From Nitrospirota bacterium (lineage in GTDB: Bacteria > Nitrospirota > UBA9217), in contig CAWBNQ010000003.1 of NCBI GenBank assembly GCA_963790205.1, positions 608,785 to 672,784 on the forward strand: a DNA stretch of 64,000 nt, in the 5' to 3' direction. The notes under the pieces are model-generated. The model searched no databases. It had not been told where the DNA came from and saw only the letters and a program-made list of their open reading frames with translations. Below are positions 11,548-64,000 of the stretch, in pieces; position 1 is the first letter of the stretch, and every line of letters starts with the position of its first letter. The translations under genes were made by a program, and so were the position numbers.

Positions 11548-11551
11548 ATTA

Positions 11552-13513: not shown

Positions 13514-13520
13514 GAATGTA

Positions 13521-13840: not shown

Positions 13841-13936
13841 GGCTGAGCCATGACCCCTTGGGGTCATTGGTCTCCAGCTCCTGGTTCTCCCGGCGCGTTT
13901 TTCGCGCTGGGAAGGAGCGCATGGCTCAGCCCCGCA
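13841..13936. repeat. Long structured palindrome: 19-bp perfect inverted repeat AATGCGGGGCTGAGCCATG around a nested imperfect palindrome.
   Basis: Read directly. No ORF. It lies between the TA cassette and the next attC. Confidence 0.5.
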
Positions 13937-13957
13937 TTCTCGCGGCGCGAAGCGCCG

Positions 13958-14016
13958 GGAGAACGCGGCGCTGACGCGCCGACCTTGGCGCGTCGCTGTC
14001 GAGCGCCAGGTTAATC
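13958..14016 (-). other. attC site.
   Basis: GGAGAAC ... GACGCGCCG ... GGCGCGTCGCTGTCGAGCGCCAG ... GTTAATC. The TAA stop of the upstream cassette ORF lies inside the core. Confidence 0.7.
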
Positions 14017-14490: not shown

Positions 14491-14521
14491 TTGTCACCAA
14501 ACCATGATCAAATTATTTCCC

Positions 14522-14581
14522 GATTAACACGCGCCTGACGCGCCGCCTTCGGGCGCGTCGCTGTCGAGGCGCTTGTTAGGC
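14522..14581 (-). other. attC site (best-formed).
   Basis: GATTAAC-ACGCGCC ... GGCGCTT-GTTAGGC are near-perfect reverse complements, with central GACGCGCCGCCTTCGGGCGCGTC. It lies 33 nt before the SIR2 gene stop. Confidence 0.8.
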
Positions 14582-14614
14582 TACCTTTCCTCTTGTCATG
14601 TTCGAACTAGATGT

Positions 14615-15748: not shown

Positions 15749-15788
15749 TTCTCACGTATTTCCTTTCGCGACCCTCTCGACGCGACTG

Positions 15789-16529: not shown

Positions 16530-16576
16530 ATAAAATGTACTTAATGTATATATGCCTCTACATATGATGTGATTTA

Positions 16577-17416: not shown

Positions 17417-17466
17417 GCCTCCTTGGAACTAACATGTTATTGACTATAAGGACCAGGTTTATGATA

Positions 17467-17829
17467 TCAATAACCTTCTGACTCCCCGTTTATGATAAGC
17501 CGTTCCAATTCAGTTCCCTTGATTTTGCCGTATTGAATATGCCAGGCGCGTGTTTTTGGATCCCATTTCCCTTGCGCCGCTTTGGCCTTCTCCCGCAAAA
17601 CTGTATCATTATATGCAATGCGCACAGGCACTCGAGTGTTGTCCTCGAATCGGCGTACAGCAGGCGCCCAGGTTTTCTTCTCAATGATCAGTTCTGCGGT
17701 CTTCAGCCGGGTGCGGCTCACCTTGTCGTAACGGTAGCGTACGCAGAGGAGCGCCGCGCCGTATTTGGCAACCAGGCTTTTTGTCCCTTTTTGCCCCGGT
17801 TTCAGCTTGATGGTCGTAATGATTGGCAT
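17467..17829 (-). CDS. Hypothetical protein, first cassette next to attI.
   Basis: 120-aa basic protein. No recognised domain. Confidence 0.35.
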   Translation of the reverse strand: MPIITTIKLKPGQKGTKSLVAKYGAALLCVRYRYDKVSRTRLKTAELIIEKKTWAPAVRRFEDNTRVPVRIAYNDTVLREKAKAAQGKWDPKTRAWHIQYGKIKGTELERLIINGESEGY

Positions 17830-17839
17830 CGCATCCCCC

Positions 17840-17930
17840 TCAAGGGTATAACATGGAAAAGCCTACTATAAATATCCACTAATTGCAAGAATTTCAATGG
17901 GGTATCGCGGGGTATTGAGGCCGGGGTATT
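17840..17930. promoter_or_regulatory. Putative attI region: GGGTATAAC core-like site plus three GGGGTAT(T/C)G direct repeats abutting the intI start. Pc is expected here.
   Basis: Direct repeats at about 17899, 17909 and 17923. It lies between the first cassette ORF start and intI. Confidence 0.35.
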
Positions 17931-19378
17931 GCTAATTCGATATATTCCCGGTATGCCATCCTGTATGGAACCCATCCCCCCGGATACCCTTGCTCGCTTT
18001 AACAACTTCATGAAACGGCATAATGTCGCCCCTCTTTGCCGGTCCGATTACCGGAAGTGGCTCCGCTATTTTCTCGACTTTCGCGCCAAATATTCTCTGC
18101 CCGACCCTCATACCGATCAAGTGAAGCTGTTTGCGGAAAAGTTGCGGTCGAAGAATCAAACCACGGCGCAGGTAAAACAGGCGACTGATGCGATCTCGCT
18201 TTATTTCTCTCTCCAGCCTGAAATTGAAATTGTCTCTACGACGGGGCTCATGCGGCGTCAGGACCGGACGGAGGAACAACGTCTGTCGGAACGGCGCTCT
18301 TCCCCGGAGCAGTCTCCTGAGTTGGTCCGTGAGCCTCCCGGACTTTTGCAGGCCCAGCCTCCCGTCAGATCAGGCAGGCGGTATGACGAATGGCGTTGCC
18401 TCAGAAAAACCGCGTCACCTGCGTGGGACGGGGTGATCGGAAAGCTGGCCGAGGAAATAAAGGTCCGGCACTATTCCCGCAAAACACTCAAACACTATGC
18501 TGATTGGATCAGAAAATTTCAGAATTACCTGAAAGACAAAACACCCGGGGATCTGTCCTCGCAGGATGTCAAAGAGTATCTCACTCATCTGGCCGTCTAA
18601 GGAAGACGTCTCTTCAAGCCACCAGAATCTCGCATTCAATTCTCTGCTGTTTCTGTACAGGCACATCCTGAAGAAGGACTTTGGAGATCATAAAGATGTC
18701 CCGCGCGCGAAGACCTCGAACTATATCCCTGCGGTTCTTTCCCGCAAGGAGATCGATTCGGTTCTGGTTCATCTCAGACATCCCTTCAGGCTTGTGGCCC
18801 AGCTCCAGTATGGCTGCGGGCTGCGCATTTCCGAGGGCTGCCAGCTGCGCGTCAAGGATTTTGACTTCGATACGGGTCTCCTTAGGGTGCGGGGAAAGGG
18901 CGACAAAGTACGGACCGTGCCGCTGCCGAAAACGCTCCTCACGGAACTTCATGCCCAGTTGGAGCACGTGAAAAAACTGCATGAGGAGGATCTCACAGCG
19001 GGTTTCTCCGGGGTCTTTCTCGACGATCAACTTGAAAAGAAGTATCCGCGGGCCGCGAAGGAGTTTGTCTGGCAATGGTTTTTCCCGCAGGAGTCGCTGA
19101 CTTTCATCGCTCAAACGAAAGAATCGCGGTGCTATCATGTGCATGATTCGCGGATGCAGGAAGCTTTCGGCGAAGCGGTGCGCAAGGCGAAACTCACAAA
19201 GCGCGTCACCTCCCACACCTTCCGCCATTCCTATGCAACCGCAATGCTGCAGGCCGGTTACGATCTCCGCACGATTCAGACGCTCCTTGGCCACGCGGAC
19301 GTCAGGACCACGATGATCTATCTGCACTGCCTCCCGCCAAAACCCGGGAAAGAGGTAAAAAGCCCGTTGGATTTCTGA
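17929..19378 (+). pseudogene. intI: Integron integrase IntI, split into two ORFs by a +1 frameshift at about 18590. It carries an about 150-aa N-terminal extension.
   Basis: The IntI-specific patch is present: LEKKYPRAAKEFVWQWFFPQ ... HDSRMQEAFGEAVRKA. Catalytic RxxR, HxxR and Y are present: HTFRHSYATAMLQAGYDLRTIQTLLGHADVRTTMIYLHCL. ORFs 17929..18600 and 18566..19378 are in different frames. Confidence 0.85.
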
Positions 19379-19444
19379 GGCCAGGATCGACTGTTAAGTT
19401 TTTCTTTGCCTTCTTGCCCTTCTCGCGGTAAAATCCTTCTGCAT

Positions 19445-20188
19445 ATGGACATCATCATCGCTCACAATTTGAAAAAGGACTACAACGGCCTTCGGGCCGT
19501 GGACAACATCGATTTTGCGATCAGGCAGGGCGAGTGCTTCGGTTTCCTCGGCCCCAACGGCGCGGGAAAGACCACGGTCATGCGCATCATCTCCTGCTTC
19601 ATGCCGCCCACGGCAGGGACGGTGACGGTCTTCGGGATGGATGTCGTGGACCGGCCGAGCGCGATCAAGTCCCGCATCGGCGTCATGCCGCAGGACATCA
19701 ATCTCGACCCCGATCTTTCCGTGACCGAGAACCTCAGGGTCTATGCCCGGTACTTCGACATCCGGAAAAAGGACGCGCTCAGGCTCAGCCGGGCGCTCCT
19801 CGAGTTCGTCGAACTCACCGACAAGGGGGCCGCCGAGATCGACCAGCTTTCGGGCGGGATGAAGCACCGCCTCCTGCTCGCGCGCGCGCTCGTGAACAAC
19901 CCGGAGATCCTGGTCCTCGACGAGCCCACGACCGGGCTGGACCCGCACAGCAGGCGGGCGGTCTGGGAAAAGCTCAACCACTTGAAATCAAAAAATACCA
20001 CGCTTCTCCTCACGACGCACTACATGGAAGAGGCGGAGAAGCTGTGCGACCGGGTGGCGATCATGGATTCGGGCAGGATCGTGACCGTTGATTCTCCCCG
20101 GCATCTTACGGAGGAACACGGCGGGAACCTTGAGGACGTCTACCTTCAAGCTCACGGGGAGGAGCCTTGCAGATTAAGCGCGCGATGA
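19445..20188 (+). CDS. ABC transporter ATP-binding protein.
   Basis: Walker A GPNGAGKTT, signature LSGGMKHRL and Walker B ILVLDEPT. Confidence 0.9.
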   Translation: MDIIIAHNLKKDYNGLRAVDNIDFAIRQGECFGFLGPNGAGKTTVMRIISCFMPPTAGTVTVFGMDVVDRPSAIKSRIGVMPQDINLDPDLSVTENLRVYARYFDIRKKDALRLSRALLEFVELTDKGAAEIDQLSGGMKHRLLLARALVNNPEILVLDEPTTGLDPHSRRAVWEKLNHLKSKNTTLLLTTHYMEEAEKLCDRVAIMDSGRIVTVDSPRHLTEEHGGNLEDVYLQAHGEEPCRLSAR

Positions 20189-20923
20189 GGGTCTGGCAGC
20201 GTCACTGGACGGTGTACACCAAGCTCTACAAGACGAGCTTTGCGCTCAACTTCGCCGAACCGGCGCTGTACCTCGTGGCCATGGGTCTGGGGCTCGGCGC
20301 CTTCGTGAAGGACATCCACGGCGTGCCGTATATCAAGTACATCGCGCCCGGCATCATCGCCTCCTCGTCGGTCTTCGCCGCGGTGTACGAGTGCACCTAC
20401 GGCACGTACATCCGGATGACCTTCCAGAAGACCTTCGACGCCATCCTCGCGACGCCGGTGAACCTCGACGATCTTGTGGCGGGCGAGCTCATCTGGGGCG
20501 CGACCAAGAGCGTGATCTTCGGGATCACGATCATGATCGTCGTGGCCCTCTTCGGGCTCGTGGATTCGCCCTTGATCCTCCTCGCCATCCCTTTCATCTT
20601 CCTGGGCGGGCCTGATCTTTGCCGAGCTTTCGCTTGTCTTCTGCGCGCTCGTGCCGGGCATCGACTTTTTCAGCTATTTCTACACGCTCTTCATGACGCC
20701 GCTGTTTTTGTTTTCGGGAATATTTTTCCCCCTCGACGCCATGCCTCCCATCGTTGCCCGCCTGGCGTTCTTTACGCCGCTCTATCACCTCGTGAACGTG
20801 TGCCGCGCTTTTTCAGCAGGGACCGTCTCCGGGGCGGGCGTGGACATCCTCTGGATCGTGCTGATTGTTCTCATCCTGGCGCCCTTTCCCTTCAGGCTCA
20901 TGAGAAAGAGGATCATCGTTTGA
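20167..20923 (+). CDS. ABC-2 type transporter permease, frameshifted at about 20610 (extra C in GGGCGGGCC).
   Basis: The N-terminal part is in frame 1. The C-terminal part (PGIDFFSYFYTLFMTPLFLFSGIFFPL) is in ORF 20651..20923, frame 2. The continuous 612-aa track ORF is an artefact. Confidence 0.7.
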
Positions 20924-21015
20924 CGGGTCTTTGTTCCGTACTCCGGTGCGGCGCTGAAGCAGGAAATTCAGAATGCGCGATATCATATCAGGAAGGGTCT
21001 GGTATAATTGATACT

Positions 21016-22005
21016 ATGAATTTTTCCATAAAAATAACGGGCGAGGAAAATTGTGCCGGCTTGAAACAGAACTCGTTCAAAGACACTATTCAGGCTGCCG
21101 GGCACGGACAGCTTCAAGCGCGGAACATTTCGGTGCTGCAGGTCAACATGGGCTACCGATGCAATATGGCGTGCAGGCATTGTCATGTTGCCGCCGGTCC
21201 GGTCCGGACCGAGGTCATGGAGCGGAGGACCGTTGACGCGGTGCTCTCCGCATTGCTCCGGAACCCCATCGGGACCCTGGACATCACCGGAGGGGCGCCG
21301 GAGCTGAATCCTTTTTTCCGCACCCTTGTAAGAGAGGCGCGAAAGGCGGGCAAGCGGGTCATCTGCCGCACGAACCTCACGATATTCTCGGAGCAGGGCA
21401 TGAAAGATCTCCCGGAGTTTTACGGCGAACAGGGTGTGGAGCTTATCGCCTCGCTTCCCTGCTATCTCGAAGAGAACGTCGCCGCAGTGCGGGGGAACGA
21501 CGCATTCCAAAAGAGCATCGCCGCGCTCCGCACATTGAACGGCCTCGGGTTCGGCGATGGACCGGAAGGGAGGCCCTTGAGCCTTGTGTACAATCCCGGA
21601 GGCGCTTTTCTTCCTCCTTCTCAATGCGCGCTCGAAGCGGATTACAAGCGGGAGCTCAGGGACCGCTACGGCGTTTTCTTTACGCGGCTCTACGCATTTA
21701 CGAACATGCCCATCGGCCGCTTCCGCGATTCCCTGGTCGCATCGGGAACATTCGACCGGTATCGCGACATGCTGGCTTCTGCTTTCAACCCGCAAACCCT
21801 CGACAACATCATGTGCCGTGGCCTCGTGAGCGTGGGATGGGACGGCAGACTTTTCGACTGCGACTTCAACCAGGTCCTCGGCCTGGGCGTGGCTGCCGAC
21901 ATTCCTCAACATATTCAGAATTTCGATTACGACGCCCTTGCCCACAGGCGCATAACCGTGGACGATCACTGCTTCGGCTGCACGGCAGGGCAGGGGTCCA
22001 CGTGA
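21016..22005 (+). CDS. Radical SAM/Cys-rich domain protein, ArsS-like (arsenosugar biosynthesis family).
   Basis: CNMACRHCH radical-SAM motif and C-terminal DDHCFGCTAGQGS, typical of the TIGR04167/ArsS family. Confidence 0.6.
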   Translation: MNFSIKITGEENCAGLKQNSFKDTIQAAGHGQLQARNISVLQVNMGYRCNMACRHCHVAAGPVRTEVMERRTVDAVLSALLRNPIGTLDITGGAPELNPFFRTLVREARKAGKRVICRTNLTIFSEQGMKDLPEFYGEQGVELIASLPCYLEENVAAVRGNDAFQKSIAALRTLNGLGFGDGPEGRPLSLVYNPGGAFLPPSQCALEADYKRELRDRYGVFFTRLYAFTNMPIGRFRDSLVASGTFDRYRDMLASAFNPQTLDNIMCRGLVSVGWDGRLFDCDFNQVLGLGVAADIPQHIQNFDYDALAHRRITVDDHCFGCTAGQGST

Positions 22006-22085
22006 GTGGGCGCCGTTGCCTAGCAGGCGGTCGCCTGCTGACAGAAGACCTCAATAAAAAACAGTGATCGGCCGAAGGGGAAAAC

Positions 22086-22703
22086 ATGACAACGACGAAG
22101 ATCACGACGTTGTTCCTGGACATCGGAGGCGTTCTGCTCACGAACGGCTGGGGCAGGGCCTCACGAAAGTCCGCGGCCGAGAGTTTTAAGCTTGATTTTG
22201 CCGAAATGGACGAGCGGCACCACCTGACCTTCGATACCTACGAGTCGGGCAAGCTGGGCCTCGACGAGTACCTCGACCGCGTGGTCTTTCATGAAGCCCG
22301 GCCGTTCTCGCGCGAGGCGTTCAAAACGTTCATGTACGACCAGTCCCAACCCTATCCCGAGATGATCGCTCTGATCAAAAATATTAAGGCGCAACACGGA
22401 TTGAAGATCGTTGCCGTGAACAACGAAGGCCGCGAGCTTACCACCCACCGCATTCGGAAATTTGCACTCGATACGTTCATCGATTTTTTCGTGTCATCCT
22501 GTTTTACCCACCTCCGCAAGCCCGACGCTGATATCTACCGCATGGCCCTCGACATTGCCCACGCGCCGGTGGGACGAACGCTCTCTATCGATGACCGCCT
22601 CCTGTTCGTGGAAGTGGCGCGGGGGCTCGGCATAGAGAGCATCCATCACAAGGCCTTCGAAACGACAAGGACGGCGCTGGAAACATACGGACTGTCCGTG
22701 TGA
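22086..22703 (+). CDS. HAD-superfamily hydrolase (subfamily IA-like).
   Basis: FLDIGGVL motif I and downstream HAD motifs. Confidence 0.6.
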   Translation: MTTTKITTLFLDIGGVLLTNGWGRASRKSAAESFKLDFAEMDERHHLTFDTYESGKLGLDEYLDRVVFHEARPFSREAFKTFMYDQSQPYPEMIALIKNIKAQHGLKIVAVNNEGRELTTHRIRKFALDTFIDFFVSSCFTHLRKPDADIYRMALDIAHAPVGRTLSIDDRLLFVEVARGLGIESIHHKAFETTRTALETYGLSV

Positions 22704-36045: not shown

Positions 36046-36123
36046 CGCCTGCGCGTAATGACGGCATAAAAGACTTTTTATGAGACCGTCAAGTTTTCAA
36101 TTTACAATTTCCACTGATCCCGT

Positions 36124-37257
36124 ATGCCTATGGCCACCGTGCGGCTCCTGAGAAACGGCATTGAAGCCTTCCCCGCGATGTTCGAAGCCATTGACCGTGC
36201 GCAGTCATCCGTCGCTGTCGAGATGTATACCGTGGCCGATGACGAGACGGCGCGGGAATTCCGCGCCCGCCTGGTGAAGGCGGCGGGACGGGGAGTGCGC
36301 GTTATGGTCCTTGTGGACGCCTGGGGTTCGTGGGACCTGCCGGACTCGTTCTGGGATGTACTCCGCATCGCCGGCGGCATGGTACGCTGGTTCCATCCGA
36401 TTGCCCGGGGACTACTCCCGTTCCGCAATCACCGGAAGCTGCTGCTCGTTGACGACCGCACTGCCTACATCGGCGGGATGAACATCGCGGACGAATATTA
36501 CCGCGGAGCGGGCGGGTTGGCTCCCTGGCGGGACAACGTCCTCGAGATCTCGGGGATGGAGGTCGCAAGGCTCAGGCGGTCATTCAAGAGGATGTGGGCT
36601 AGGGCGGATGCGCCGTTCCGCAGGCTTTTTCTCCGCTTGCGCCGGTTGCGCGTCGCCCGCCGCATTGATCACGACGCCCTGCGGTTCCTTGAAAACGGGC
36701 CTGAGGACCCAATGAGGCCGGTGCGCAGGGCCTACCGGCAGTTGGTCCAAAGCGCGGCGAGGAGCATCGACCTCGCCATGGGCTACTTCTATCCCCATGG
36801 AAGGATGATGCGGATCCTTAAGCGCGCGGTGAAGCGCGGAGTGCGAGTACGTCTCCTGTTCCCGCAGAAAACCGATGTGCCGATAGCGCGTTGGGCGGCA
36901 CGGGGGCTCTACGGCAGACTGCTGCGCGCCGGCATCGAGGTCTGGGAATACCTGCCGACGATGATGCACGCCAAGCTCGCGATCGCGGACGATACGGTGA
37001 TTGCCGGGTCCGCGAACCTGGATATCCGGAGCGGCAGCATCAACTATGAGCTGGTGGCGGTCGTGACCGACCCGTTGCTGGCGGCGAGGGCGCGGTCGGA
37101 TTTCGAGGATGACCTCAAACAGGCGGTGCGGATACGCTTTGAAGACTGGAGAAAGCGGCCGCTGATCCAGAAACTCAAGGAACGCTTCAGCTACTGCCTG
37201 CTCGCACGAGCTGACATATTTTTTGCCCGGGCAGGGCTGACCAGAAAAATGCGGTAA
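36124..37257 (+). CDS. Phospholipase D-family protein (cardiolipin synthase ClsB-like).
   Basis: Two HKD motifs: HRKLLLVDD and HAKLAIADD. Confidence 0.8.
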   Translation: MPMATVRLLRNGIEAFPAMFEAIDRAQSSVAVEMYTVADDETAREFRARLVKAAGRGVRVMVLVDAWGSWDLPDSFWDVLRIAGGMVRWFHPIARGLLPFRNHRKLLLVDDRTAYIGGMNIADEYYRGAGGLAPWRDNVLEISGMEVARLRRSFKRMWARADAPFRRLFLRLRRLRVARRIDHDALRFLENGPEDPMRPVRRAYRQLVQSAARSIDLAMGYFYPHGRMMRILKRAVKRGVRVRLLFPQKTDVPIARWAARGLYGRLLRAGIEVWEYLPTMMHAKLAIADDTVIAGSANLDIRSGSINYELVAVVTDPLLAARARSDFEDDLKQAVRIRFEDWRKRPLIQKLKERFSYCLLARADIFFARAGLTRKMR

Positions 37258-51373: not shown

Positions 51374-52379
51374 TCATTCTTCTTTCAACTCTCTGGACAT
51401 AAGGTCTCTTACCGCCCGTTTCGGGTCCTTGCCCTCGTACAGGATCAGATAGACCTCATCCACGACCGGCATGTCGACGTTGAACTTTCTGGCCAGGTCC
51501 CGGGCCGCCCGGGCCGTCTTCACGCCTTCGGCCACGGTCTTGACGCCCTTCATGATATCGTCCAGCTTTTCACCCTTGCCGAGCCGCACGCCGAGCGTCC
51601 GGTTGCGCGACAAACCTCCCGTGCACGTGAGCACCAGATCGCCCATGCCGGCGAGACCGGAAAAGGTCTCGAGGTTGCCGCCCATGGCGACGCCGAGGCG
51701 GGCCATTTCTGCTAAGCCCCGCGTGAGCAGGGCCGCGGCGGTGTTGTAGCCGTAGCCCATGCCTTCGAGCACGCCGGCCGCGATGGCGACGACGTTCTTG
51801 AGCGAGCCGGCAAGCTCCACGCCGATGACATCGGGATTGGTATAAATGCGGAAATAGGCGTTGCTGAAGATTTCCTGCGCTTTCCTGCCGAGAGCGGGGT
51901 CGTACGAAGCGAGAGAGACCGCGGTGGGCATCTTTTGCGCCACTTCTTTGGCGAAGCTCGGGCCGGAGAGGAAGCAGAGCCGGTTATGATACTCGTTTCG
52001 GCAGGATGTCCCTGAACACTTCCGAGAGCGGCATAAGCGTGTCGATCTCGATTCCTTTCGAGGCGCTCACGAGGACCGTATCGTCCGACAGAAACGGCGC
52101 GAATTGTCCGGACACGGCGCGCACGGTGTGGGAGGGGACAACGGAAAGGATCACAGCCCTGCCCGCGACGGCCGCTTCCATCGAAGCGGTCACCTTGATC
52201 GAGGCGGGCAGGGTGAACCCGGGCAAATAGACCCGGTTCTCCCGGGTGCGCGACGTCTCCTCGGCCAGGTCCTTCTCGTACATCCAGAGGGTGACGTCGT
52301 GCCCCTTGTCCGCGAGCAGCATGGAAAGGGCCGTGCCCCATGCGCCTGCGCCGATTACCCCGATTCTCTCAGTCATCAT
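51374..52379 (-). CDS. gpsA: Glycerol-3-phosphate dehydrogenase [NAD(P)+], split by a frameshift near 51950-51985.
   Basis: N-terminal IGVIGAGAWGTALS Rossmann motif (ORF 51984..52379) and C-terminal GpsA domain (ORF 51374..51943) in different frames. Confidence 0.8.
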
Positions 52380-52496
52380 GGGCCATTATAAGGGTAATGA
52401 GATTGCCTGTCAAAAGGTTTATGGGGAAGGACAGGGAGAAGAACCTCCACTCTTCGGAAAAGGGGCAGTTTCAGGCTTTCGCCCGCGATCATTTGC

Positions 52497-53913: not shown

Positions 53914-55866
53914 GTGTACGCTCGGCACGGGCGTGAGCTAATGGGGTGCAAGTCCTCTGTACGAGAACCAGAGTAGCACAAGTACCAGCCCAAGGCAAGG
54001 GCGGAAGGGCGACCGACCGTCTGAAGGAAGCCTAACGGCAAACGTGCGAGCCGACGGACAGAAACCGCATACAAGGCTTAGCCCTCGGGTGAGTCAGCAC
54101 CACATGACGAAGCCCACTGGTTCAGGGGATAGGGTAAATGCGGCGGTTGCGCACGGACAGTTCACGTTCTTATCCGGGGAGATCTGCGCGACATGCGATA
54201 GGATCGTCATGAGAGAATCCGGGACGGGTCAACCCGGCAAGCAAGGCCCCGGCGTATCAGCGGCTGTCGCCTGATACGAGTCCCGCTTTCGGGAGATACG
54301 AATCAGACAGCATCTCATGCCGAACCCCTGTAGCGCCTTCTTTGGAAACAGAGACGGTGAGCGCGCAGAAGTCAGCAGACGGCATAGTAGTCCCGGACTA
54401 CTCGGGACGAAGGCCAGAACGCGGAAAGGAGGAAGGGCAATCCATAAGCTCTGGGACGGTGATGAGTCCGACACGGATGAGCCGATCCGGGCGCGTTATG
54501 GAGAGACAGCCCACTCGAATGACCACAGTGGAAGACGTTGTAGGCAGTGAGAACATGCAGCAGGCATGGCAGCGGGTCAAGGCGAACAAGGGAGCAGCCG
54601 GCATCGACGACATGTCGATTACGGACTATCCCGAATTCGCCAGGACCAACTGGCCAAGAATCAAAGCCTCCTTGCTGGACGGGACGTATGATCCCACTCC
54701 GGTCAAGAGGGTCGAGATTCCGAAGGACAACGGGGGTACGAGGCTTCTCGGCATCCCCACGGTCTCCGATCGCGTTATTCAGCAAGCGATCACCCAGGTG
54801 CTTGTCCCGATCTTCGATCCCCACTTCTCCGAATCGAGCTATGGGTACAGGCCGGGCCGCTCGGCGCATCAGGCTGTAAAGAAGGTGGTTGAGTTGATCA
54901 ACCAAGGATACCGCTACGCCGTTGACATCGATCTTGCGAAGTTCTTCGATAACGTCAATTGGGACGTGTTGATGAGCCGGGTCGGTAGACGCGTCACGGA
55001 CAAGGGCATCCTCAAACTGATCGGCAAATACCTTCGGGCCGGAGTCGTCGTAAACGGCAGGCTTACCCAGACCACCAAAGGAGTGCCGCAGGGCGGGCCG
55101 CTTTCGCCGTTCCTGTCGAACATTCTTCTGGATGATCTCGACAAAGAGTTGGAGAAACGGGGGCATCAGTTCTGCCGGTACGCCGACGACCTTATCATTC
55201 TGGTAAAGTCAAAGCGTGCCGGAGAGCGGGTGATGAAGAGCGTCACCACCTTCCTTGAAAAGAACCTCAAGGTGCAGGTGAACAGGGACAAGAGCAAGGT
55301 GGGAAGCGCGGAGTCCAGCATCTTCCTCAGCTTCACGTTCCATCTCAAGAGGCCCACTGTCTCCCGGAAGGCGTTCACGAACTTCAAGAATGAACTCAAG
55401 GACCTTACGGGCCGCAGCTGGGGTGTATCCATGAAGCACCGATACGATAAAATCCGGACCTACTTACAGGGCTGGATGAACTATTTCGGAATCGGTATGC
55501 GGTACAACGATGCGGTCGAACTGGATCAGCGGCTCCGAAGACGCATTCGGATGTGCTATTGGAAACAGTGGCGCACGACGAGAAAGCGCGTCGGGGAGCT
55601 GATGAAACGCGGGGTGAGTGAACATCGCGCAGTATCGGTCGGCATGAGCAGGAAGAGCTACTGGCATCTTGCTAAGAACGAAGCCATCAATGTCGGCCTG
55701 TCCAATGCCTATCTCAAGGAACAGGGGCTTACCTCGATCAGAACACTGTGGATCAAGATTCACCATCCGGCTACGGCCCGATAGTTTTCTGCGAATCGCC
55801 TAGTGCGGACCCGCATGCTAGGTGGTGTGGGGGCTGGGGGCTAAACACCCCCGGCTACCCGATTAA
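53914..55866 (+). mobile_element. Group II intron (attC-associated, class C-like), antisense to the cassette genes.
   Basis: A structured 5' region of about 430 nt with no ORF. The RT/maturase ORF lies in the domain IV position. DV/DVI-like hairpins at about 55805-55860, ending about 8 nt before the next cassette ORF stop. Confidence 0.7.
54342..55784 (+). CDS. Group II intron reverse transcriptase/maturase (RT domains 0-7 plus X; no En domain).
   Basis: The YADD motif (FCRYADDLIILV), RT blocks (PQGGPLSPFLSNILLDDLD) and a maturase/X region. The probable real start is an internal Met near 54500. Confidence 0.9.
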   Translation: METETVSAQKSADGIVVPDYSGRRPERGKEEGQSISSGTVMSPTRMSRSGRVMERQPTRMTTVEDVVGSENMQQAWQRVKANKGAAGIDDMSITDYPEFARTNWPRIKASLLDGTYDPTPVKRVEIPKDNGGTRLLGIPTVSDRVIQQAITQVLVPIFDPHFSESSYGYRPGRSAHQAVKKVVELINQGYRYAVDIDLAKFFDNVNWDVLMSRVGRRVTDKGILKLIGKYLRAGVVVNGRLTQTTKGVPQGGPLSPFLSNILLDDLDKELEKRGHQFCRYADDLIILVKSKRAGERVMKSVTTFLEKNLKVQVNRDKSKVGSAESSIFLSFTFHLKRPTVSRKAFTNFKNELKDLTGRSWGVSMKHRYDKIRTYLQGWMNYFGIGMRYNDAVELDQRLRRRIRMCYWKQWRTTRKRVGELMKRGVSEHRAVSVGMSRKSYWHLAKNEAINVGLSNAYLKEQGLTSIRTLWIKIHHPATAR

Positions 55867-55873: not shown

Positions 55874-56767
55874 TCATTTAGATTTCCAACTTATGCGGCG
55901 CAATAGGACGCCATCGTCAAGAGCGATAAGGTGATAAATATCTCCCTCTGAATCCACTGCAAATCTTTCATCGAAATTGCCCCGATATCTAATTTGAATT
56001 GGCTTTTCAATTTTCTTGGATTGCACATCACCATTAATTTGGTATTGTATCTTTATGTTTTTGTCCTTATTTTCGATTTGTACAGTTGTCGTTATTGCAT
56101 AATTATTCTTTCGAGAGTTATTAGATTTGATGCGATAAAAAGTCCCTTCTTTGTCATACCAAGAGAAATGATCATGATTTGGATTCTTTACATATTTAAG
56201 GAAATTTCCATCAAAATCATAAACTGCTGACTTTCCCGATCCTCCAATAACACAAGTAACATGGCCCATCTGTTCATCGCTGCTTATCTCAGAAAAATAC
56301 TCTTCTGTCTTCGGGTTAAGCTGCTGAGCGCCAAATTTATTTAATATCTTGCCACCGGAGGATATTTTGTAAATATCGTCATTCAGCATATTATAATAAG
56401 GTGGCTTTGCTATGAGGGCGAAGAAGTTGTCATTCAAAATAGCGAATCGACCAGCAAGTCCTTGTTTGATCCAATCGAAACCGAGAGGGATCTTTCTAAT
56501 GAACTTACCGTTTAAGTCGAAGACTTGAATTCGGTTATTCATAGAATCGAAAATATAAATATGACTTTTGTAAAGTTGAAAGTCTAGCGAATAGCCCAGT
56601 TCCGTTTTGCCAAGAGTTTCTCTACCAAATTCGCCGTCTTTGTCGCCCCAATTACCAACGATTAATATGTTGTCACTGATATTAGGGCCGCAAAATGCGG
56701 GCGAGGTATATAAACTGCAAAAAAGAACGATGATCATGACGTATTTCAGAACTTTCATGAATACCAC
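55874..56767 (-). CDS. Secreted protein with NHL-repeat-like beta-propeller motifs (cassette).
   Basis: Signal peptide. IYIFDSMNNRIQVFDLNGKF-type repeats. Confidence 0.4.
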   Translation of the reverse strand: MVFMKVLKYVMIIVLFCSLYTSPAFCGPNISDNILIVGNWGDKDGEFGRETLGKTELGYSLDFQLYKSHIYIFDSMNNRIQVFDLNGKFIRKIPLGFDWIKQGLAGRFAILNDNFFALIAKPPYYNMLNDDIYKISSGGKILNKFGAQQLNPKTEEYFSEISSDEQMGHVTCVIGGSGKSAVYDFDGNFLKYVKNPNHDHFSWYDKEGTFYRIKSNNSRKNNYAITTTVQIENKDKNIKIQYQINGDVQSKKIEKPIQIRYRGNFDERFAVDSEGDIYHLIALDDGVLLRRISWKSK

Positions 56768-56787
56768 CTTTGATGAGCTTTTATTCG

Positions 56788-56847
56788 GATTAACGCGCGG
56801 GTGAGACGCGCGTATTTTGCGCGTCGTTCTCGACCCGCAGGTTGGGT
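56788..56847 (-). other. attC site.
   Basis: GATTAAC-GCGCGGG ... GACGCGCGT...GCGCGTCG ... CCCGCAG-GTTGGGT. It abuts the TGA stop of ORF 56847..57677. Confidence 0.75.
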
Positions 56848-57677
56848 CATTTGTCGAGTTTCGTTCCGCTCAACCCGTCCTGCGAACTCTTTTTAAAGAT
56901 ATTCATCATTTGCTCGATCATGCCCTTATTATTTTTTGCTTCAACAGTCATAAACTTATATGCCTCGTTTTCTGGATGAATGCTTGTGGAAATTAGCAGT
57001 TCGCTATTACTCTGTGTCAGTTCAGGTGAAAGTTTGAAAAATACTCTGTTCGGATGGCGTCGTTTATCTAACGAAAGAGTTATGCTAATGTTTGGAAATT
57101 GAAGCACCCAGCCATTGACACTTTGGCCGTCTCTTGCGGTATCCATCGGCTTTATTTTCTTTCTATAAGGCAGAAAGAAGGCACTATGCAGCGGGTCTGT
57201 CAGAAAAAAGACAAAAACATCTATATAATCAACAGCGCCACCATTATACAAGTCATTTCTTATTTTTTGCTCATAAAAACTACCGACGGAGAGTGATCGC
57301 ACCTCAAGTTGCTTTGATACACTGACACGCCACAAGACAGATGCAAAGAACTTTCTTAGTTTTGTTTTGTCGATATCGTTGAACACACATAGTTTCGTAT
57401 CTTTAGCGTCCGGGTGTGATACTCGGTCAAAGAGGCCTTGCTTGTCTCTCAATACTTGAATTGCATAAGCATCGAGTGGTTCAAAAATACCATGTTCGCA
57501 ATCCGGACACACAATTTTGTCATCGTAGATTGCTTTCTGTAATCGACGCCCTCTTTCACCCGATGAGTCATAGGTTTCAACCTTTCCCTTAGTTTCAATG
57601 TTACTAAAAAAACCAATGGAGAAGATATGAGCCTTAGCCATTTTATCTTTCTCATTTGTGCACAAGAGACACTTCAT
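56847..57677 (-). CDS. Hypothetical protein with N-terminal CxxC...CxxC/His zinc-finger (possible HNH-like).
   Basis: MKCLLC ... AKAHIFS ... VCPDCEHG. No confident family. Confidence 0.3.
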   Translation of the reverse strand: MKCLLCTNEKDKMAKAHIFSIGFFSNIETKGKVETYDSSGERGRRLQKAIYDDKIVCPDCEHGIFEPLDAYAIQVLRDKQGLFDRVSHPDAKDTKLCVFNDIDKTKLRKFFASVLWRVSVSKQLEVRSLSVGSFYEQKIRNDLYNGGAVDYIDVFVFFLTDPLHSAFFLPYRKKIKPMDTARDGQSVNGWVLQFPNISITLSLDKRRHPNRVFFKLSPELTQSNSELLISTSIHPENEAYKFMTVEAKNNKGMIEQMMNIFKKSSQDGLSGTKLDK

Positions 57678-57681
57678 TTTT

Positions 57682-58164
57682 TTACTGAGGGTTGTATCCT
57701 TTTAAATAATTAGTAACCGCCACATAATTATCCATCCACATCATAGCAAACTGAACAAGTGTCATGGGATTCGGCTCGTCAATACCAATTTGAGTTAACC
57801 ATGCTTTGGCCCAATGAATTCCATTGCCCGAATTCCTCGACTTTAACAACTCGGACACCTGGTCCATTGTCGCTTTTACTTCAATGACAAAAGGATAGCC
57901 CTCCACTATATCGGGAGAGAAGACTATCTTTTCAAGGAACTCCCTAACGTGCCGAAAGTTTGCATTTTTATCTTCTAAAGCAAGAAGTGCCAATAAGACC
58001 AGTGCCAATTTATGAAGCACAACCTTATCTTCAAAAGACGGAGAGAGTACCCAATTTGTATTCAACTTGAACCGAGAGTTTATATCTTTGTTCATGATAA
58101 AGTCGGAGAGAAGTACATCCGCCAAAATATTAGGTTTTATTTTTTTCTTACCGATGTCAAACAT
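57682..58164 (-). CDS. Hypothetical protein (same cassette as 56847..57677; 4-nt gap).
   Basis: 160-aa ORF. No recognised domain. Confidence 0.3.
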   Translation of the reverse strand: MFDIGKKKIKPNILADVLLSDFIMNKDINSRFKLNTNWVLSPSFEDKVVLHKLALVLLALLALEDKNANFRHVREFLEKIVFSPDIVEGYPFVIEVKATMDQVSELLKSRNSGNGIHWAKAWLTQIGIDEPNPMTLVQFAMMWMDNYVAVTNYLKGYNPQ

Positions 58165-58214
58165 AACGTATTTTATGATACCTTTTTTATTATTTGGCTT
58201 AGTCCAATGTTAAG

Positions 58215-58739: not shown

Positions 58740-59261
58740 TCACTCCTTCAAAAACTTCTCCACCTTGTTCGCCCACACCTCATACCCCTTGCCGCTCAAA
58801 TGCACGCCGTCGTCCTGGAGATAGTCGCCGATCGGGTTTCCCTTTGAATCGACAAAAAGGCCGTAGACGTCAAGATATTCGGCGCCATGCTCGCGCGCTA
58901 TTTCAGCAAGATGACGGTTGGTGTCCTTGATGACGTTGTTACTGACCCATGACAGGTCAACGGGCAGGATGCTTTGGACCACGACCGTGGCTTTCTTGTA
59001 CCACGTGGTCAGGTTTCGCACGATCTCGCGGTAGCTGTCCGTGATGAAGTACTGCTCCATGGCGATATCATTGATGCCGGTCATGAGGAAAATAGTGTCG
59101 GGGTTATCGAGCTGCGAACGGATCCCGTCCCTGCGCGCAAGCAAGCCTTCGACCGGCTCGCCCGAGATGCCGAGGTTGGTCACGGTGTAATCGGGAAAGC
59201 GCCGCTGCCAGTCGAACCACTCGGTCAGGGAATCGCCTATGAAGACGAGATGTTTTTTCAT
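58740..59261 (-). CDS. SGNH/GDSL hydrolase-family protein.
   Basis: Block I FIGDSLT and downstream SGNH blocks (GINDI, DGVHLS). Confidence 0.75.
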   Translation of the reverse strand: MKKHLVFIGDSLTEWFDWQRRFPDYTVTNLGISGEPVEGLLARRDGIRSQLDNPDTIFLMTGINDIAMEQYFITDSYREIVRNLTTWYKKATVVVQSILPVDLSWVSNNVIKDTNRHLAEIAREHGAEYLDVYGLFVDSKGNPIGDYLQDDGVHLSGKGYEVWANKVEKFLKE

Positions 59262-59403
59262 AGGGCAGGATCTGCCAGAGAGCGCAGAGAGGACTGAAGG
59301 GTTGTTGTCATTATTCCGGGGTATTCTGTCTCAAGATTGCTTCTTTCAGCATCATTACCGAAGGCACGTTCGCGAGCCGCCCGGACTCGTCCCGGTACAT
59401 CCT

Positions 59404-59628
59404 TCAGGTGACGCCGGGCGCATTGCCGCCTTCGAAGGCGTCCTTCCCGTTTATCCAGACGGTGGGGGAGCCTTTGATCCCGAGGCTGACCGCATCGTCG
59501 TAATACACGGTCCGGTAGTTGACCTCGGTCTCGACATGCAGTTCCGCAAGCGCTTTTTCGATGTTCTCGCGGAGCTCGTAATAGGAACCGCATTGCTCGG
59601 ACGTGAATATGTCGATCTTTAAAGACAT
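59404..59628 (-). CDS. Thioredoxin-fold small protein (MTH895/ArsE-like family).
   Basis: 74 aa starting MSLKIDIFTSEQCGSY ... GSPTVWINGK, a Trx-like beta-alpha-beta pattern. Confidence 0.45.
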   Translation of the reverse strand: MSLKIDIFTSEQCGSYYELRENIEKALAELHVETEVNYRTVYYDDAVSLGIKGSPTVWINGKDAFEGGNAPGVT

Positions 59629-59705
59629 AACTCAGGGAAAGGCTAAGGTTAAGGCTGAGTAAGCCCGAACTCAACCTCAACCTTGCTTCCTCAACCTTAA
59701 GACGT

Positions 59706-59936
59706 TCATCCCACATGAATGATCGTGACCGGGCAGGAGTCGGAGGCCTCCTTCACCTTGTCCAGGAGCTCCGCCGGCGCTTCGCCCGTTGCGGGATCGC
59801 CCCCGACGCGATACTTCGTTGTCACTTCACTCCAGCTGTCGTTCGGATTCTGCTGGAAGAACTCGGGGCAGACGGTCCAGCATGATTCGCAGCTGATGCA
59901 TTCTTCCCTGGTGATCGTTACTTTTGTTTTTGCCAT
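59706..59936 (-). CDS. Ferredoxin (single [4Fe-4S]/[3Fe-4S] cluster type).
   Basis: CISCESC ... CP motif in a 77-aa protein. Confidence 0.7.
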   Translation of the reverse strand: MAKTKVTITREECISCESCWTVCPEFFQQNPNDSWSEVTTKYRVGGDPATGEAPAELLDKVKEASDSCPVTIIHVG

Positions 59937-60010
59937 GAGTACACCTCTCTTCAGTTGAATTTTTATGAAATAAAACCGCGATAGCACAATGGATTGTCCG
60001 GCTGTCAGGA

Positions 60011-60334
60011 TTAAACGAGTCTTTTTCTCTCCAGAACATCGTCTGCCCAGGAGAGCGCGGCCGAGACGGAGGGAAAACCGATCGTACTCGTGAGGAGAAT
60101 GACGGCGTGGCGTATTTCCTCGGGCTTGGCGCCGGCCGCGACGGCCCGCCGCGTGTGCGAGTGGACCGAACCTTCGGAATGGACCGCTGCGGCAGCGGCG
60201 AGCTGGACCAGCTCTGAAGTCTTTTTATTCAGCGGTCCGGCTGTCTTGGCCGCCTTGCCGAGGTTTTCCACTGCTTTCATAAGACCTTTGTACCGTTTCT
60301 GGATGCCGGTGTACTGGTTGGGCAGCTTGGGCAT
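60011..60334 (-). CDS. Carboxymuconolactone decarboxylase-family (AhpD-like) protein.
   Basis: CMD-family helical signature around HSEGSVHSHTRRAVAAGAKPEEI. Confidence 0.6.
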   Translation of the reverse strand: MPKLPNQYTGIQKRYKGLMKAVENLGKAAKTAGPLNKKTSELVQLAAAAAVHSEGSVHSHTRRAVAAGAKPEEIRHAVILLTSTIGFPSVSAALSWADDVLERKRLV

Positions 60335-60399
60335 GGGATTTCTCCTCTCGCATTCATACCGGGGTCGTCTCCCGCCTTCGGAGTTATTTTTTCAAGTGT

Positions 60400-61353
60400 A
60401 TGCAAAAAGCCGGGAATAGTCAAGTGAATGCGGCGTTTGACTCGCCGGGGGATCTATGCTACGTTTTTATCATGCAGAGCGCAGAATATCTCCGGCAGGT
60501 GGTGACCGTACTTTCAGGGGAGATCGGGGTCCGCACCTACCGGGACATGGACCGGCTCCAACGAACGGCGGAATATATCTCCGGGCAATTCAAGGCTTCC
60601 GGCTACGAGGTTTCAAGACAGCCTTTTCTCTTCCGGGGCAACACGTACCATAACGTCATCGCGGAGCTCACGGGCGGGGCTTCCCCGGAAAAAATCCTCA
60701 TCGTCGGGGCGCATTACGACACGGTTCGCACCACCTCCGGAGCGGACGACAATGCAAGCGGCGTGGCCGGCCTGCTCGACCTGGCGAGGACGCTTCGGGG
60801 GAAGAAGTTGTCGAAGACCGTACGGTTCGTTGCCTTTGCCCTTGAAGAGTCGCCGGTCTACCGCTCCCGGAACATGGGGAGCTATCACTATGCGCGGAGC
60901 TTGAAGGAAAAAAAGGAACAGGTCCTGGGCATGGTCTGCCTCGAGATGATCGGCTTCTTCTGCGACCGCGACGGCTCTCAGCATTATCCGCTCCCGTTTT
61001 TTAAATTACGATATCCTTCGCAGGGGAACTTCATCTCCCTGGTCGGCAACCTGCGCTCCCGGGCCTTTACGAAAAGGATGGCCGCGGGTTTTCGCAAGGC
61101 CGTCGATCTTCCTCTCGTCACGTTGAACGCGCCGGCGATCGTCGTGGGCATCGACTTTTCCGACCACTGGTCGTTCAACAAGTTCGGGTATGACGCGCTC
61201 ATGGTCACGGACACGGCTTTCTATCGCAACCCTCACTATCATGCGCCGACGGACCTGCCTGAGACGCTCGATTACGGACGGATGGCCAAGGTGGTCGAGG
61301 GGCTCACCGCGGCAGTGGGGGAATGGGGAGGGAGCGACGGAGGCGGGGCATGA
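60400..61353 (+). CDS. M28-family zinc aminopeptidase.
   Basis: HYDTV ... GADDNASGVAGLLDLAR ... EE ... H metal-ligand pattern. Confidence 0.8.
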   Translation: MQKAGNSQVNAAFDSPGDLCYVFIMQSAEYLRQVVTVLSGEIGVRTYRDMDRLQRTAEYISGQFKASGYEVSRQPFLFRGNTYHNVIAELTGGASPEKILIVGAHYDTVRTTSGADDNASGVAGLLDLARTLRGKKLSKTVRFVAFALEESPVYRSRNMGSYHYARSLKEKKEQVLGMVCLEMIGFFCDRDGSQHYPLPFFKLRYPSQGNFISLVGNLRSRAFTKRMAAGFRKAVDLPLVTLNAPAIVVGIDFSDHWSFNKFGYDALMVTDTAFYRNPHYHAPTDLPETLDYGRMAKVVEGLTAAVGEWGGSDGGGA

Positions 61354-61450
61354 GAGATGAAAAGAAGCGGGAACACCCGGGGAATATTGACAATCCCGTC
61401 GTTTCCGTGTATTTTTAAGGCAGGCGCATTGTTATTATAAGGAGGATGGC

Positions 61451-61696
61451 GTGAAGAAAGCATGTTTACTACTGGCATTGTTTTTCCTGTTTTCATCGGC
61501 AGCGGTTTTTGCCGACGAAGAGAAGGAATCGGCAAAGGAAGGATTCAAGGAAGTCCAGAGTGGAATGAAAAAAGTGGCCAAGGCTGTTGATAAGAAGGCC
61601 AAGCAAGGCGCAAAAAAGATCGACAAGACCGCCAAGAAGACCTGGAAACAGATCGGACACGACATTCATCATCAGGATCAGGCCGGCAAGGACTGA
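61451..61696 (+). CDS. Small secreted Lys-rich protein, hypothetical.
   Basis: Signal peptide followed by KK-rich repeats. Confidence 0.35.
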   Translation: MKKACLLLALFFLFSSAAVFADEEKESAKEGFKEVQSGMKKVAKAVDKKAKQGAKKIDKTAKKTWKQIGHDIHHQDQAGKD

Positions 61697-61816
61697 CGCC
61701 CCAAGGACTTTCCGGGATGACCACGTCCGGCCTTCCCTTTCCGGTTCCTCGAAAACTCCATTGACATTCCTGCCGCTCCCCTATATTCTATTTCGGTCAG
61801 TCGATACCTTCAGAGT

Positions 61817-64000
61817 GTGAGGCACGGCATGATCCTGACCAGGATTCAAGAAACGGCAGCGCGGCATCCCGACGACACAGCCGTCCAAATGAAGTCTGAC
61901 AACGCGTACCGGCAATACACCTATCGGGACCTGGTGCAGGGCACGGCGTCCGTTGCCCGCTCCCTCTCGGAGGGGGGGATCGGGAAGGGCGACCGCGTGG
62001 CCCTTCTTTCCGAGAACCGTCCCGAATGGATCTTCGCCTATCTCTCGACGGTCTCGCTCGGGGCGGTCATCGTTCCGCTCGACGCGCAGTTCACTGACAA
62101 GGAGGTGGCGCTCCTTCTTGCAAACTCCGGGGCAAAGGCGGTCTTCGTGTCCGCGGCAGGCAGGCCGAAGCTTCCCCCGACCAATCGCTCATGATACTTT
62201 CCTTTGACGCCGGGGAAGGTCTTTCTTTCCCGGAGATGCTCACGGCCCATCTTGACGCAGAAATACCTCCCGCGCCTTCGCCCGGCGATACGGCCGCGCT
62301 TCTCTACACCTCGGGCACGACCGGCGACCCCAAAGGGGTGATGCTTTCCCACGGAAACCTGGCATCGAACCGCGAAAGCGTTATCCGGCTGAACCTGATC
62401 GGTCACGGGGACAACCTTCTCTGTCTTCTCCCGCTGCACCATACCTATCCCGCCATCGCCTGTATCTTCTACGCTCTCGCCGTCGGCGCGAAGGTGACGA
62501 TCCTGAACAGCCTGAAGGGCCCCGATATCCTCGCGTGCATGAAGGAGACGAACGTGAGCGTCATGCTCGGCGTGCCGCAGTTGTTCGCCGGCCTGCGCCG
62601 CGCCATCTTTGACGAAATACGGAAAAAACCTGTTGTCGTGCGGCTGCTCGTAAAAATTCTTCTCAGCATGAACGGCCTGTTCAGGAAGACCGCGAACGTG
62701 AATGTGGGTAAGGCGCTCTTCGGCAAGGTGCACGCCCGGTTCGGGCCCGGGTTCAGGCTTTTTGCGAGCGGCGGGGCGCGGCTCGATCCCGACGTGTACA
62801 CCGACATGACCAGGCTCGGGTTCACCATCATCGAAGGGTACGGCCTGACCGAGACCTCGCCGGTCTGCACCTTCAACCCCGTTTCGAAGCAGAAGCCGGG
62901 CTCGATCGGCATCCCGGTCCCCGGCGTCGAGGTCAGGATCGCGAACCCCGATGAGCACGGCCAGGGAGAGCTCGCGGTGCGCGGACCGAACGTGATGCTC
63001 GGTTATTACAAAAAACCCGCGGGAAACCGCCGAAGTGCTGAAGGACGGCTGGTTCTATACCGGCGACCTGGGGTTCCGGGACAAGGACGGGTACTTTTTC
63101 ATCACCGGCAGGTCCAAGGAGATGATCGTGCTCCCTACGGGGAAGAAGATATTTCCCGAGGAGCTCGAGAAGTTCTACAAACAGATCCCCGCGATCAAGG
63201 AAATTTGCCTCATTCAGGGCGAGCGCGGGCTTGAGGCGGCCGTGGTCCCCGATTTCGATTATCTCCGGAAGATGAACCTTTCAAATTCGCGCGAGACCAT
63301 CGCGTTCGAGATCGAAGACCTCGCCAAAGACCTGCCGCCCTACAAACGGATCTCGGGCCTCAAGATATTCAAGGAGTCCCTGCCCGTAACGCGTCTGGGC
63401 AAGCTCAAGAGGAGCCTGGTAAAAGACCTGTATGAAAAGGGCGGCGAACGGGCGGAGAAAGCGGTGGAGGAAATCGACGGCAACCTGCTTGCGGACCCGG
63501 TTGCGAAGAAGCTGCTCGCGTGCCTTGAACCCTTTTCCGCAAAAAAGAACATCGTGCCCGACGACAACCTGGAACTCGACCTCGGGCTCGATTCGCTTTC
63601 GAGGGTGGAGCTGGTCGTGAGCCTCGAAAAGACCCTGGGCCTCAGCCTGCCGGAGTCCTTCGGCTCCGAGATCTTTACGGTAAAAGACGCGGTGCTGAAG
63701 CTCCGGGAGCTGATCGCTTCGGGACCGGTGAAGGCCGGCGAGCAGGTGCGGCTGACCTGGGCCGAGATCCTCGTTCAGGAGCCTTCCGACGGGGTGCAAC
63801 AAACGCTCAGCCTCGAATCGGGCCTGCTCTGCAGCATCGGCAAGTATCTCCTCAAAGGGTTTCTCAAGGTATTTTTCAAGGTCTACAACCGCCTTTCAAT
63901 ACGCGGCCTCGAGAACCTCCCGAAAAGAGGGCCCTATATTATCGCGCCGAACCATTTGAGCCTTGCCGATGCTCCGGCTGTCATGGCTTCGGTCACCTGG
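61817..64000 (+). CDS. Tri-domain fusion: long-chain fatty-acid-CoA ligase (AMP-binding), acyl carrier protein, and PlsC-type acyltransferase. It has two frameshifts and continues past the window end.
   Basis: AMP-binding motifs: LLYTSGTTGDPKGV, GYGLTE and GWFYTGD. PP-binding site LGLDSLSRVEL. Acyltransferase NHxxxxD motif IIAPNHLSLAD. Frame changes near 62190 (C5 run) and near 63012 (A6 run). Confidence 0.75.

Follow-up and report, generated by a model that had tools for sequence, protein, structure and literature searches.

The stretch analysed here (the window) comprises 64,000 nucleotides of a Nitrospirota bacterium (contig CAWBNQ010000003.1 of assembly GCA_963790205.1, positions 608,785 to 672,784 of the forward strand), and it ends within a plus-strand gene for a tri-domain protein in which an AMP-binding ligase is followed by an acyl carrier domain and a PlsC-type acyltransferase. 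The partial coding sequence, 61829..64000 (+), holds 724 of about 870 codons, i.e. the 5′ five-sixths of the gene, whose 3′ end lies outside the window together with the remaining ~150 residues of the acyltransferase part. A preliminary description, made from the letters of the window alone, had placed the gene from 61817 to beyond the window end, called it a permuted Aas-like protein and attributed two homopolymer frameshifts to it. The features of the gene and of the DNA just before it were as follows.

61761..61789 (+): candidate sigma-70-like promoter (TTGACA, 17 nt spacer, TATTCT), about 40 nt before the start codon
61819..61822 (+): candidate GAGG ribosome-binding site, 7 nt before ATG 61829, read from the sequence
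61847..63009 (+): AMP-binding (ANL) N-terminal domain, residues 7-394 (PF00501, E 4e-85, full model 2-384/384)
62174..62178 (+): frameshift site 1, a run of five C where the relatives L001, L087 and L088 have six (one base missing)
63020..63020 (+): frameshift site 2, an extra C within CCCG[C]GGGAAACC, a base that L001, L087 and L088 do not have
63119..63439 (+): AMP-binding C-terminal subdomain (AMP-binding_C_3), residues 431-537 (PF23562, E 1.7e-4)
63548..63658 (+): acyl carrier (phosphopantetheine attachment) domain, residues 574-610 (PF00550, E 1.3e-7)
63740..63892 (+): linker ahead of the acyltransferase core, comprising a conserved Trp (LTWAEIL) and a long, amphipathic helix (KYLLKGFLKVFFKVY)
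63893..64000 (+): first part of the PlsC/LPLAT acyltransferase, residues 689-724 (PF01553, residues 689-719, profile 2-32/132)

On the plus strand between 61817 and 64000, the protein-like frame was mod3=2 as far as about 62178, mod3=1 from there to about 63020, and mod3=2 again to the window end. Joining the three frame pieces, with one C added at 62174 and the C at 63020 deleted, gave a 724-residue translation without stops that aligned gap-free with orthologues starting MILT. Because all orthologues begin MILT and the GAGG lies just upstream, the likely start codon is ATG 61829 and not GTG 61817; the start assumed in the preliminary description thus probably has to be moved, whereas its assignment of everything up to the window end to the same gene stood. 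The promoter candidate matches 10 of 12 consensus positions and is a consensus match only; two sigma-70-like sites were found in 700 nt, as against 0.2 expected from shuffled sequences.

The repaired translation contained the ANL core motifs YTSGTTGDPKGV, GYGLTE, FYTGD, GRSKE and RLGK, the first two of them within the N-terminal domain, into which frameshift site 1 also falls. The hinge GRSKE stands just before the C-terminal subdomain of the ligase (22.4 bits for PF23562, cut-off 20.8), and the LGK lysine motif was present as well. In the carrier domain (32.2 bits for PF00550, cut-off 20.8), the DSL serine is Ser589 of LGLDSLSRVEL (codon 63593-63595), the candidate phosphopantetheine site. 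The HX4D motif NHLSLAD of the acyltransferase occupies 63950-63970, with His709 at 63953-63955 and Asp714 at 63968-63970. The match to PF01553 stopped at profile position 32 of 132, so that the gene runs on past the window as had been proposed, and scored 17.8 bits against a cut-off of 23 for the domain as truncated by the window end. In orthologues at 69-90% identity the domain is complete (E 1e-24), and VIPVDM, FPEGSRSRDG and IPVVPV were read in it. The last 44 nt of the window had no exact match among Joint Genome Institute (JGI) metagenome contigs. The four motifs quoted in the preliminary description were all recovered in the order given there, namely LLYTSGTTGDPKGV (frame mod3=1), GWFYTGD, LGLDSLSRVEL and NHLSLAD (frame mod3=2). 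The domains, their order and their catalytic residues are established.

Ligase, carrier and acyltransferase are fused in a single gene. The preliminary description had allowed that the downstream region might be a separate gene behind a stop or a ribosome-binding site, an acyltransferase gene only seemingly joined to the ligase by the frameshifts. This possibility was refuted and can be regarded as negligible, because both 1-nt indels lie inside the ligase region, with none between domains, and because the orthologues have one open reading frame (ORF). Positions 63021-64000 form one uninterrupted frame across carrier, linker and HX4D motif, and between carrier and acyltransferase neither a stop nor a frame change nor a start signal was present. 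More than 120 uninterrupted single-protein orthologues (865-878 aa, 69-90% identity) carried PF00501, PF00550 and PF01553, and a single ORF of 890-990 aa was present at 48 of 50 more distant loci. When 1.84 billion cluster representatives were searched with only the carrier, the linker and the acyltransferase start as query, 1098 matches were returned, 257 of which were clusters (50% identity) at E<=1e-10; many of the proteins were 865-930 aa long with the match at about residues 550-750. Relatives of the carrier-acyltransferase module are encoded in at least 559 species-representative genomes, including those of Nitrospirota (among them Nitrospira japonica and Thermodesulfovibrionales), Methylomirabilota, Omnitrophota, Aquificaceae and Thermodesulfobacteriota. 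Other variants among the relatives had two or three carrier domains, or consisted of carrier and acyltransferase only.

Residue conservation was assessed in ten very divergent carrier-acyltransferase modules, including the ElbD type discussed below, and in 51 close orthologues. In the close orthologues the adenylation motifs YTSGTTGDPKGV, GYGLTE, YTGD, GRSKE and LGK were invariant. Across the divergent modules the same was true of the carrier D-S-L, of N-H-x4-D and of FPEG-R (the last read in orthologues), so that both the serine and the HX4D residues singled out for checking by the preliminary description (Ser589, His709/Asp714) proved to be present and invariant. The linker Trp was also invariant in this alignment. 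A profile of the C-terminal module matched Thermotoga maritima PlsC (5KYM) over residues 55-241 with an E of 1.2e-24, with HX4D and FPEGTRS aligned, and matched type II fatty acid synthase (FAS) acyl carrier proteins (ACPs) with E values of 1e-10 to 1e-14. An AlphaFold model of one orthologue, P0001, was of moderate quality (predicted local distance difference test, pLDDT, 75; predicted template modelling score, pTM, 0.55). It placed a helix at residues 667-686, in the linker, and this helix might bind the membrane as the N-terminal helices of PlsC do. In a Foldseek comparison of the model with the PDB, the nearest solved structures were acyl-CoA ligases and adenylation-carrier didomains; nothing was returned on the acyltransferase.

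The two frame changes were then compared with related contigs. At site 1, a contig assembled from Illumina reads (L001, 91% nucleotide identity) and two short-read Logan contigs of the same population (L087 and L088, 98-99%) all read CTTCCCCCCGAC. At site 2, removal of the C gave GYYKKPGETAEVLKDGWFYTGD, and the repaired peptide was identical to that of L087 and L088. Hence two shifts do exist and the first is a homopolymer-length error, in agreement with the preliminary description; the second is of another kind, an extra C that splits a run of G (CCCG[C]GGG) beside a run of six A, downstream of the ANL N-terminal domain and before GWFYTGD. Repairing site 2 by dropping one A of the A6 run (giving KNPRETAEV) was considered and rejected, since deletion of C 63020 reproduces all three reference contigs. 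Over the gene, L001 differed from the window by exactly two non-triplet indels and one in-frame codon indel. L087 and L088, which were found through a look-up of the 81-aa protein encoded upstream, covered window positions 58748-63127 at 98-99% nucleotide identity and carried the gene uninterrupted over 433 codons, across both sites; compared with them, the window gene had the same two indels and seven substitutions (six synonymous, one non-synonymous).

Judged from these comparisons, both indels are almost certainly consensus errors of a long-read assembly. We attribute them to base calling rather than to decay because L087 and L088 are uninterrupted and the substitutions are mostly synonymous, as under purifying selection. 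That the gene is instead a true pseudogene, with both indels real mutations and the enzyme lost in this strain, is very improbable. As written, translation does halt at the stop 62192-62194, and both coding indels relative to the short-read contigs hit this gene, with none in its five neighbours within the 4.4-kb overlap. However, a single non-synonymous change next to six synonymous ones over the 433 codons indicates no relaxed selection, and three additional indels were present in nearby intergenic DNA. Moreover, the essential gene gpsA and an integrase gene are likewise frameshifted in the window, and the 81-aa upstream protein is also on record on a contig longer than 1 Mb, probably the source of the window and of a length typical of long-read assemblies.

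Further single-nucleotide differences were seen elsewhere. The intergenic 1-nt indels relative to L087 and L088, at 59682, 61364 and 61367, are either consensus errors or strain differences. The gpsA gene (NAD-dependent glycerol-3-phosphate dehydrogenase), 51377-52385 (-), has a 1-nt frameshift near 52000, which divides its N-terminal domain over two overlapping ORFs (profile positions 2-125 and 126-156). A tyrosine integrase gene, 17872-19375 (+), is broken near 18560-18597 within a single Pfam domain. Pfam scans of ten further overlapping ORF pairs or pieces on the same strand found either no split domain or no match at all, so that gpsA and the integrase were the only confirmed split genes in the window beyond the tri-domain gene. 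In related public genomes, a GDSL lipase gene was found as two fragments (132 and 49 aa) in the long-read-style contig L003 and as one 176-aa gene in the near-identical L004, which suggests the same type of indel error in related long-read metagenome-assembled genomes. Since the assembly of the window has 1-nt indel errors, its apparent pseudogenes and split genes should not be taken as biology.

Comparison with a longer protein identified the family to which the tri-domain protein belongs. P0226 (1442 aa) consists of NAD_binding_4 and Sterile domains (residues 15-531) followed by AMP-binding, PP-binding and Acyltransferase domains, which is the architecture of ElbD, and residues 6-875 of P0001 were colinear with its residues 562-1436 (34% identity, E 1e-158). 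P0226 is called ElbD-type by its domain content only, as the Myxococcus xanthus sequence was not part of the comparison. For M. xanthus ElbD, the review PMC9131029, citing Lorenzen et al. 2014, gives the domains as FAR1-like fatty-acyl reductase (FAR), acyl-CoA synthetase (ACS), ACP and AGPAT-like acyltransferase, and reports in-vitro confirmation of the activities of ACS and ACP. According to the same review, the FAR domain is missing from almost all ElbD-like homologues in other phyla, among anaerobes and extremophiles, and these homologues have not been studied; this FAR-less architecture was first noted in 2014 (Lorenzen et al., via PMC9131029). The window protein is, as far as domain content and colinearity can tell, one of these FAR-less ElbD-like homologues, a family that is known but uncharacterised; in evolutionary terms the tri-domain protein is a reductase-less form of the myxobacterial ElbD family. 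The preliminary description had missed that its architecture was already known in this form and is widespread.

The likeness to ElbD of M. xanthus (MXAN_1528) lies in the colinear ACS, ACP and AGPAT-like acyltransferase module, in which the ElbD type and the window family alike have an invariant carrier DSL serine, HX4D and FPEG-R. In contrast to ElbD, the window protein and P0001 have no N-terminal fatty-acyl reductase, and the ligase comes first. The colinearity raises the possibility that the gene serves ether-lipid synthesis as ElbD does, with a separate FAR gene supplying the reductase, the products being alkyl-glycerol ether lipids and the acyltransferase carrying out a GNPAT/AGPAT-like step. 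M. xanthus needs ElbD to make its alkyl and vinyl ether lipids (PMC9131029, PMC13012113), ElbD is reported to be split at the boundary between reductase and ligase in Poribacteria and Acidobacteria (preprint 10.64898/2026.06.23.733905), and a HAD hydrolase of the ElbB family adjoins the tri-domain gene at 13 of the 50 distant loci. We nevertheless consider an ether-lipid role unlikely. No reductase gene and no elbB (HAD), elbC or elbE (epimerase) neighbourhood was found beside the gene in the window clade, in which a patatin-like phospholipase and a quinone-type UbiA take that place; ElbD homologues do not predict ether lipids, as Pontiella has a homologue and no ether lipids (PMC11868695); and the best scores of the acyltransferase were with Aas-type models.

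These scores were obtained with NCBIfam models. The Aas-type model NF006386 was the best match to the acyltransferase of P0001, with residues 669-845 aligned to profile positions 408-587 (99 bits), and the ligase of the window (residues 310-428) aligned to positions 901-1040 of the same model, in the order opposite to that of the model. The generic AGPAT model TIGR00530 gave 64.7 bits for the acyltransferase, below its cut-off of 102.95. Full-length P0001 scored far below the cut-offs of the Aas equivalogs, with 256 bits for NF006386 (cut-off 1221) and 170 for NF005291 (cut-off 1349), and its C-terminal part gave 31.6 bits for NF005959 (Aas; cut-off 886). The term "permuted Aas-like" used in the preliminary description is therefore a fair statement of resemblance, with the reversed order borne out, but by these scores the protein is not a member of the Aas family. 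The permuted order itself was confirmed by the repaired translation, the more than 120 orthologues and the 48 distant loci, and a search for orthologues with the same order, as had been advised, found them widely.

E. coli Aas and the MFS-fused Aas-type proteins likewise combine a PlsC-type acyltransferase and an ANL ligase on one chain, and by analogy the chemistry is expected to be alike, from fatty acid to acyl-carrier thioester to lysophospholipid. They differ in that Aas has the acyltransferase before the ligase, whereas the window protein has the ligase first and the acyltransferase last, and in that Aas recruits free ACP, whereas the window protein has the carrier fused in cis. No LplT-type transporter gene was detected beside the tri-domain gene. 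PlsC, represented by the T. maritima enzyme, shares a homologous acyltransferase core, but is a stand-alone protein of about 250 aa, while here the core sits as C-terminal domain in a protein of about 870 aa; the second motif is an Arg-containing block in PlsC and VIPVDM in the orthologues of the window family. Modules of nonribosomal peptide synthetases (NRPS), in which an adenylation domain precedes a peptidyl carrier protein (A-PCP), and fusions of fatty acyl-AMP ligases (FAAL) with ACP also have a ligase followed directly by a carrier, and the McyG A-PCP structure (4R0M) as well as NRPS modules could be aligned with the model. Unlike theirs, the carrier of the window family is nearest to FAS-type ACPs, the ligase is nearest to fatty acyl-CoA ligases with no FAAL among the top matches, and a lipid acyltransferase stands downstream where those modules have a condensation or ketosynthase partner. 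Fusions of FAAL-like domains to lysophospholipid acyltransferases are mentioned in passing in PMC8460268.

The genes around the tri-domain gene were compared within the close clade, i.e. among loci with at least 60% identity, where the order is GDSL lipase, CMD, M28 peptidase (at many loci), a secreted-looking protein of 77-89 aa, then the tri-domain gene itself and, after it, a patatin-like phospholipase (at 20 of 29 loci) and a UbiA-family prenyltransferase. For the M28 peptidase of the window, an exact look-up gave no match. In the window, the upstream neighbour, which is not part of the enzyme, is the following.

61451..61696 (+): 81-aa lysine-rich protein with a signal-peptide-like N-terminus

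No family match was obtained for this protein, and a gene of 77-89 aa holds the same upstream position throughout the close clade. The UbiA neighbour was considered as an ether-lipid (DGGGPS-like) prenyltransferase and rejected in that role, as it matches UbiA- and MqnP-type quinone prenyltransferases. The patatin and GDSL neighbours fit a theme of phospholipid turnover, albeit weakly.

Taken together, we estimate at roughly 0.6 the probability that the locus encodes, in an intact gene bearing assembly indels, a tri-domain protein of about 870 aa for Aas-type fatty-acid salvage and phospholipid re-acylation, with the domain order permuted and the carrier built in. The enzymatic steps are extrapolated from the families to which the domains belong and from the in-vitro data on ElbD. 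The ligase would convert free fatty acid and ATP to acyl-AMP, and the acyl group would then be loaded onto the phosphopantetheine thiol of the enzyme's own carrier domain. The carrier would swing the acyl group to the acyltransferase, which would esterify a lysophospholipid or glycerol-phosphate at the membrane.

Several points weigh against Aas-type salvage. No FAR-less member has been characterised biochemically, and for ElbD itself PMC9131029 states that acyltransferase activity was not detected in vitro. In the window gene the acyltransferase is visible only as its first ~35 residues, and the AlphaFold model of P0001 is unreliable for domain docking. The neighbourhood of patatin, GDSL lipase and UbiA is confined to the close clade and was absent at all 50 distant loci; we have downgraded it as functional evidence because it is gone outside that clade, and common descent of the gene order may account for it without any functional coupling. 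The downstream UbiA, being of the quinone type, is probably unrelated to acyl lipids. Finally, the ligase is closest in sequence to CoA ligases, so that it could release acyl-CoA instead of loading the carrier.

This last point bears on a further explanation, under which the protein is an acyl-CoA synthetase that releases acyl-CoA, or its carrier and acyltransferase build a product other than a phospholipid, such as an ornithine-lipid-like or an N-acyl lipid. In NCBIfam and the PDB alike, the ligase does match CoA ligases best, the public annotation of orthologues is "AMP-binding protein" or "long-chain acyl-CoA synthetase", and the acyltransferase weakly matches the lyso-ornithine lipid O-acyltransferase OlsA (E 9e-6). 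The likeness to CoA ligases does not discriminate, however, as known acyl-ACP synthetases likewise resemble CoA ligases, and the OlsA match is much weaker than the matches to Aas-type models and PlsC. In addition, an invariant carrier serine between the two catalytic domains, retained in very divergent members, argues for the carrier as an obligatory intermediate. We therefore regard acyl-CoA release or a non-phospholipid product as improbable.

For Aas-type salvage, a more far-reaching and tentative proposal, to which we give less than even odds, is that the FAR-less ElbD homologues as a group are self-contained salvage enzymes that take free fatty acid to membrane ester phospholipid without CoA or free ACP. 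In the Nitrospirota clade, with the patatin adjacent, they would then possibly form part of a bacterial Lands-type cycle of deacylation and reacylation. Such enzymes would amount to a permuted Aas that carries its carrier on a tether.

Some other features of the window were recorded in passing. A group II intron occupies 54003-55781 (+), with RF02001 at 54003-54168 (128 bits), RF01998 at 54334-54415 (74 bits) and an ORF at 54213-55781 with RVT_1 and GIIM maturase domains. A low-GC block at 10000-19375 (GC 0.42-0.49) contains ORFs with DUF3825 and Hypoth_Ymh and small toxin-antitoxin-like ORFs, with the tyrosine integrase (17872-19375, +) at its border, and is probably an integrated mobile island; no tRNA genes were found in the window. 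A second low-GC block, 55877-58209 (-), with a GC of 0.39, contains three ORFs that abut one another in different frames and gave a single weak beta-propeller match. Directly before the GDSL lipase gene, it breaks the synteny with related genomes; it could be an insertion, and it may contain further frameshifts. An ABC ATPase ORF overlaps a 623-aa ORF (radical SAM and DUF3641) at 19379-22002 (+), a PLD-type (cardiolipin-synthase-like) gene lies at 36118-37254 (+), and a HAD hydrolase gene is present at 22068-22700.

As a genome feature the tri-domain gene is ordinary, with hundreds of orthologues among database proteins, and a look-up of cluster names yielded generic ones only. The ACS-ACP-acyltransferase family has a very wide distribution among uncultured anaerobes (Nitrospirota, NC10, Omnitrophota and Thermodesulfobacteriota) and is currently scored as an "ether lipid gene" in environmental surveys that use BLAST to ElbD. 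Self-contained salvage, if true, would explain why "ElbD homologues" fail to predict ether lipids in such surveys. Knowing the product of the reductase-less form would sharpen lipid-biomarker inferences, and a route by which fatty acids are incorporated independently of CoA would be defined as well.

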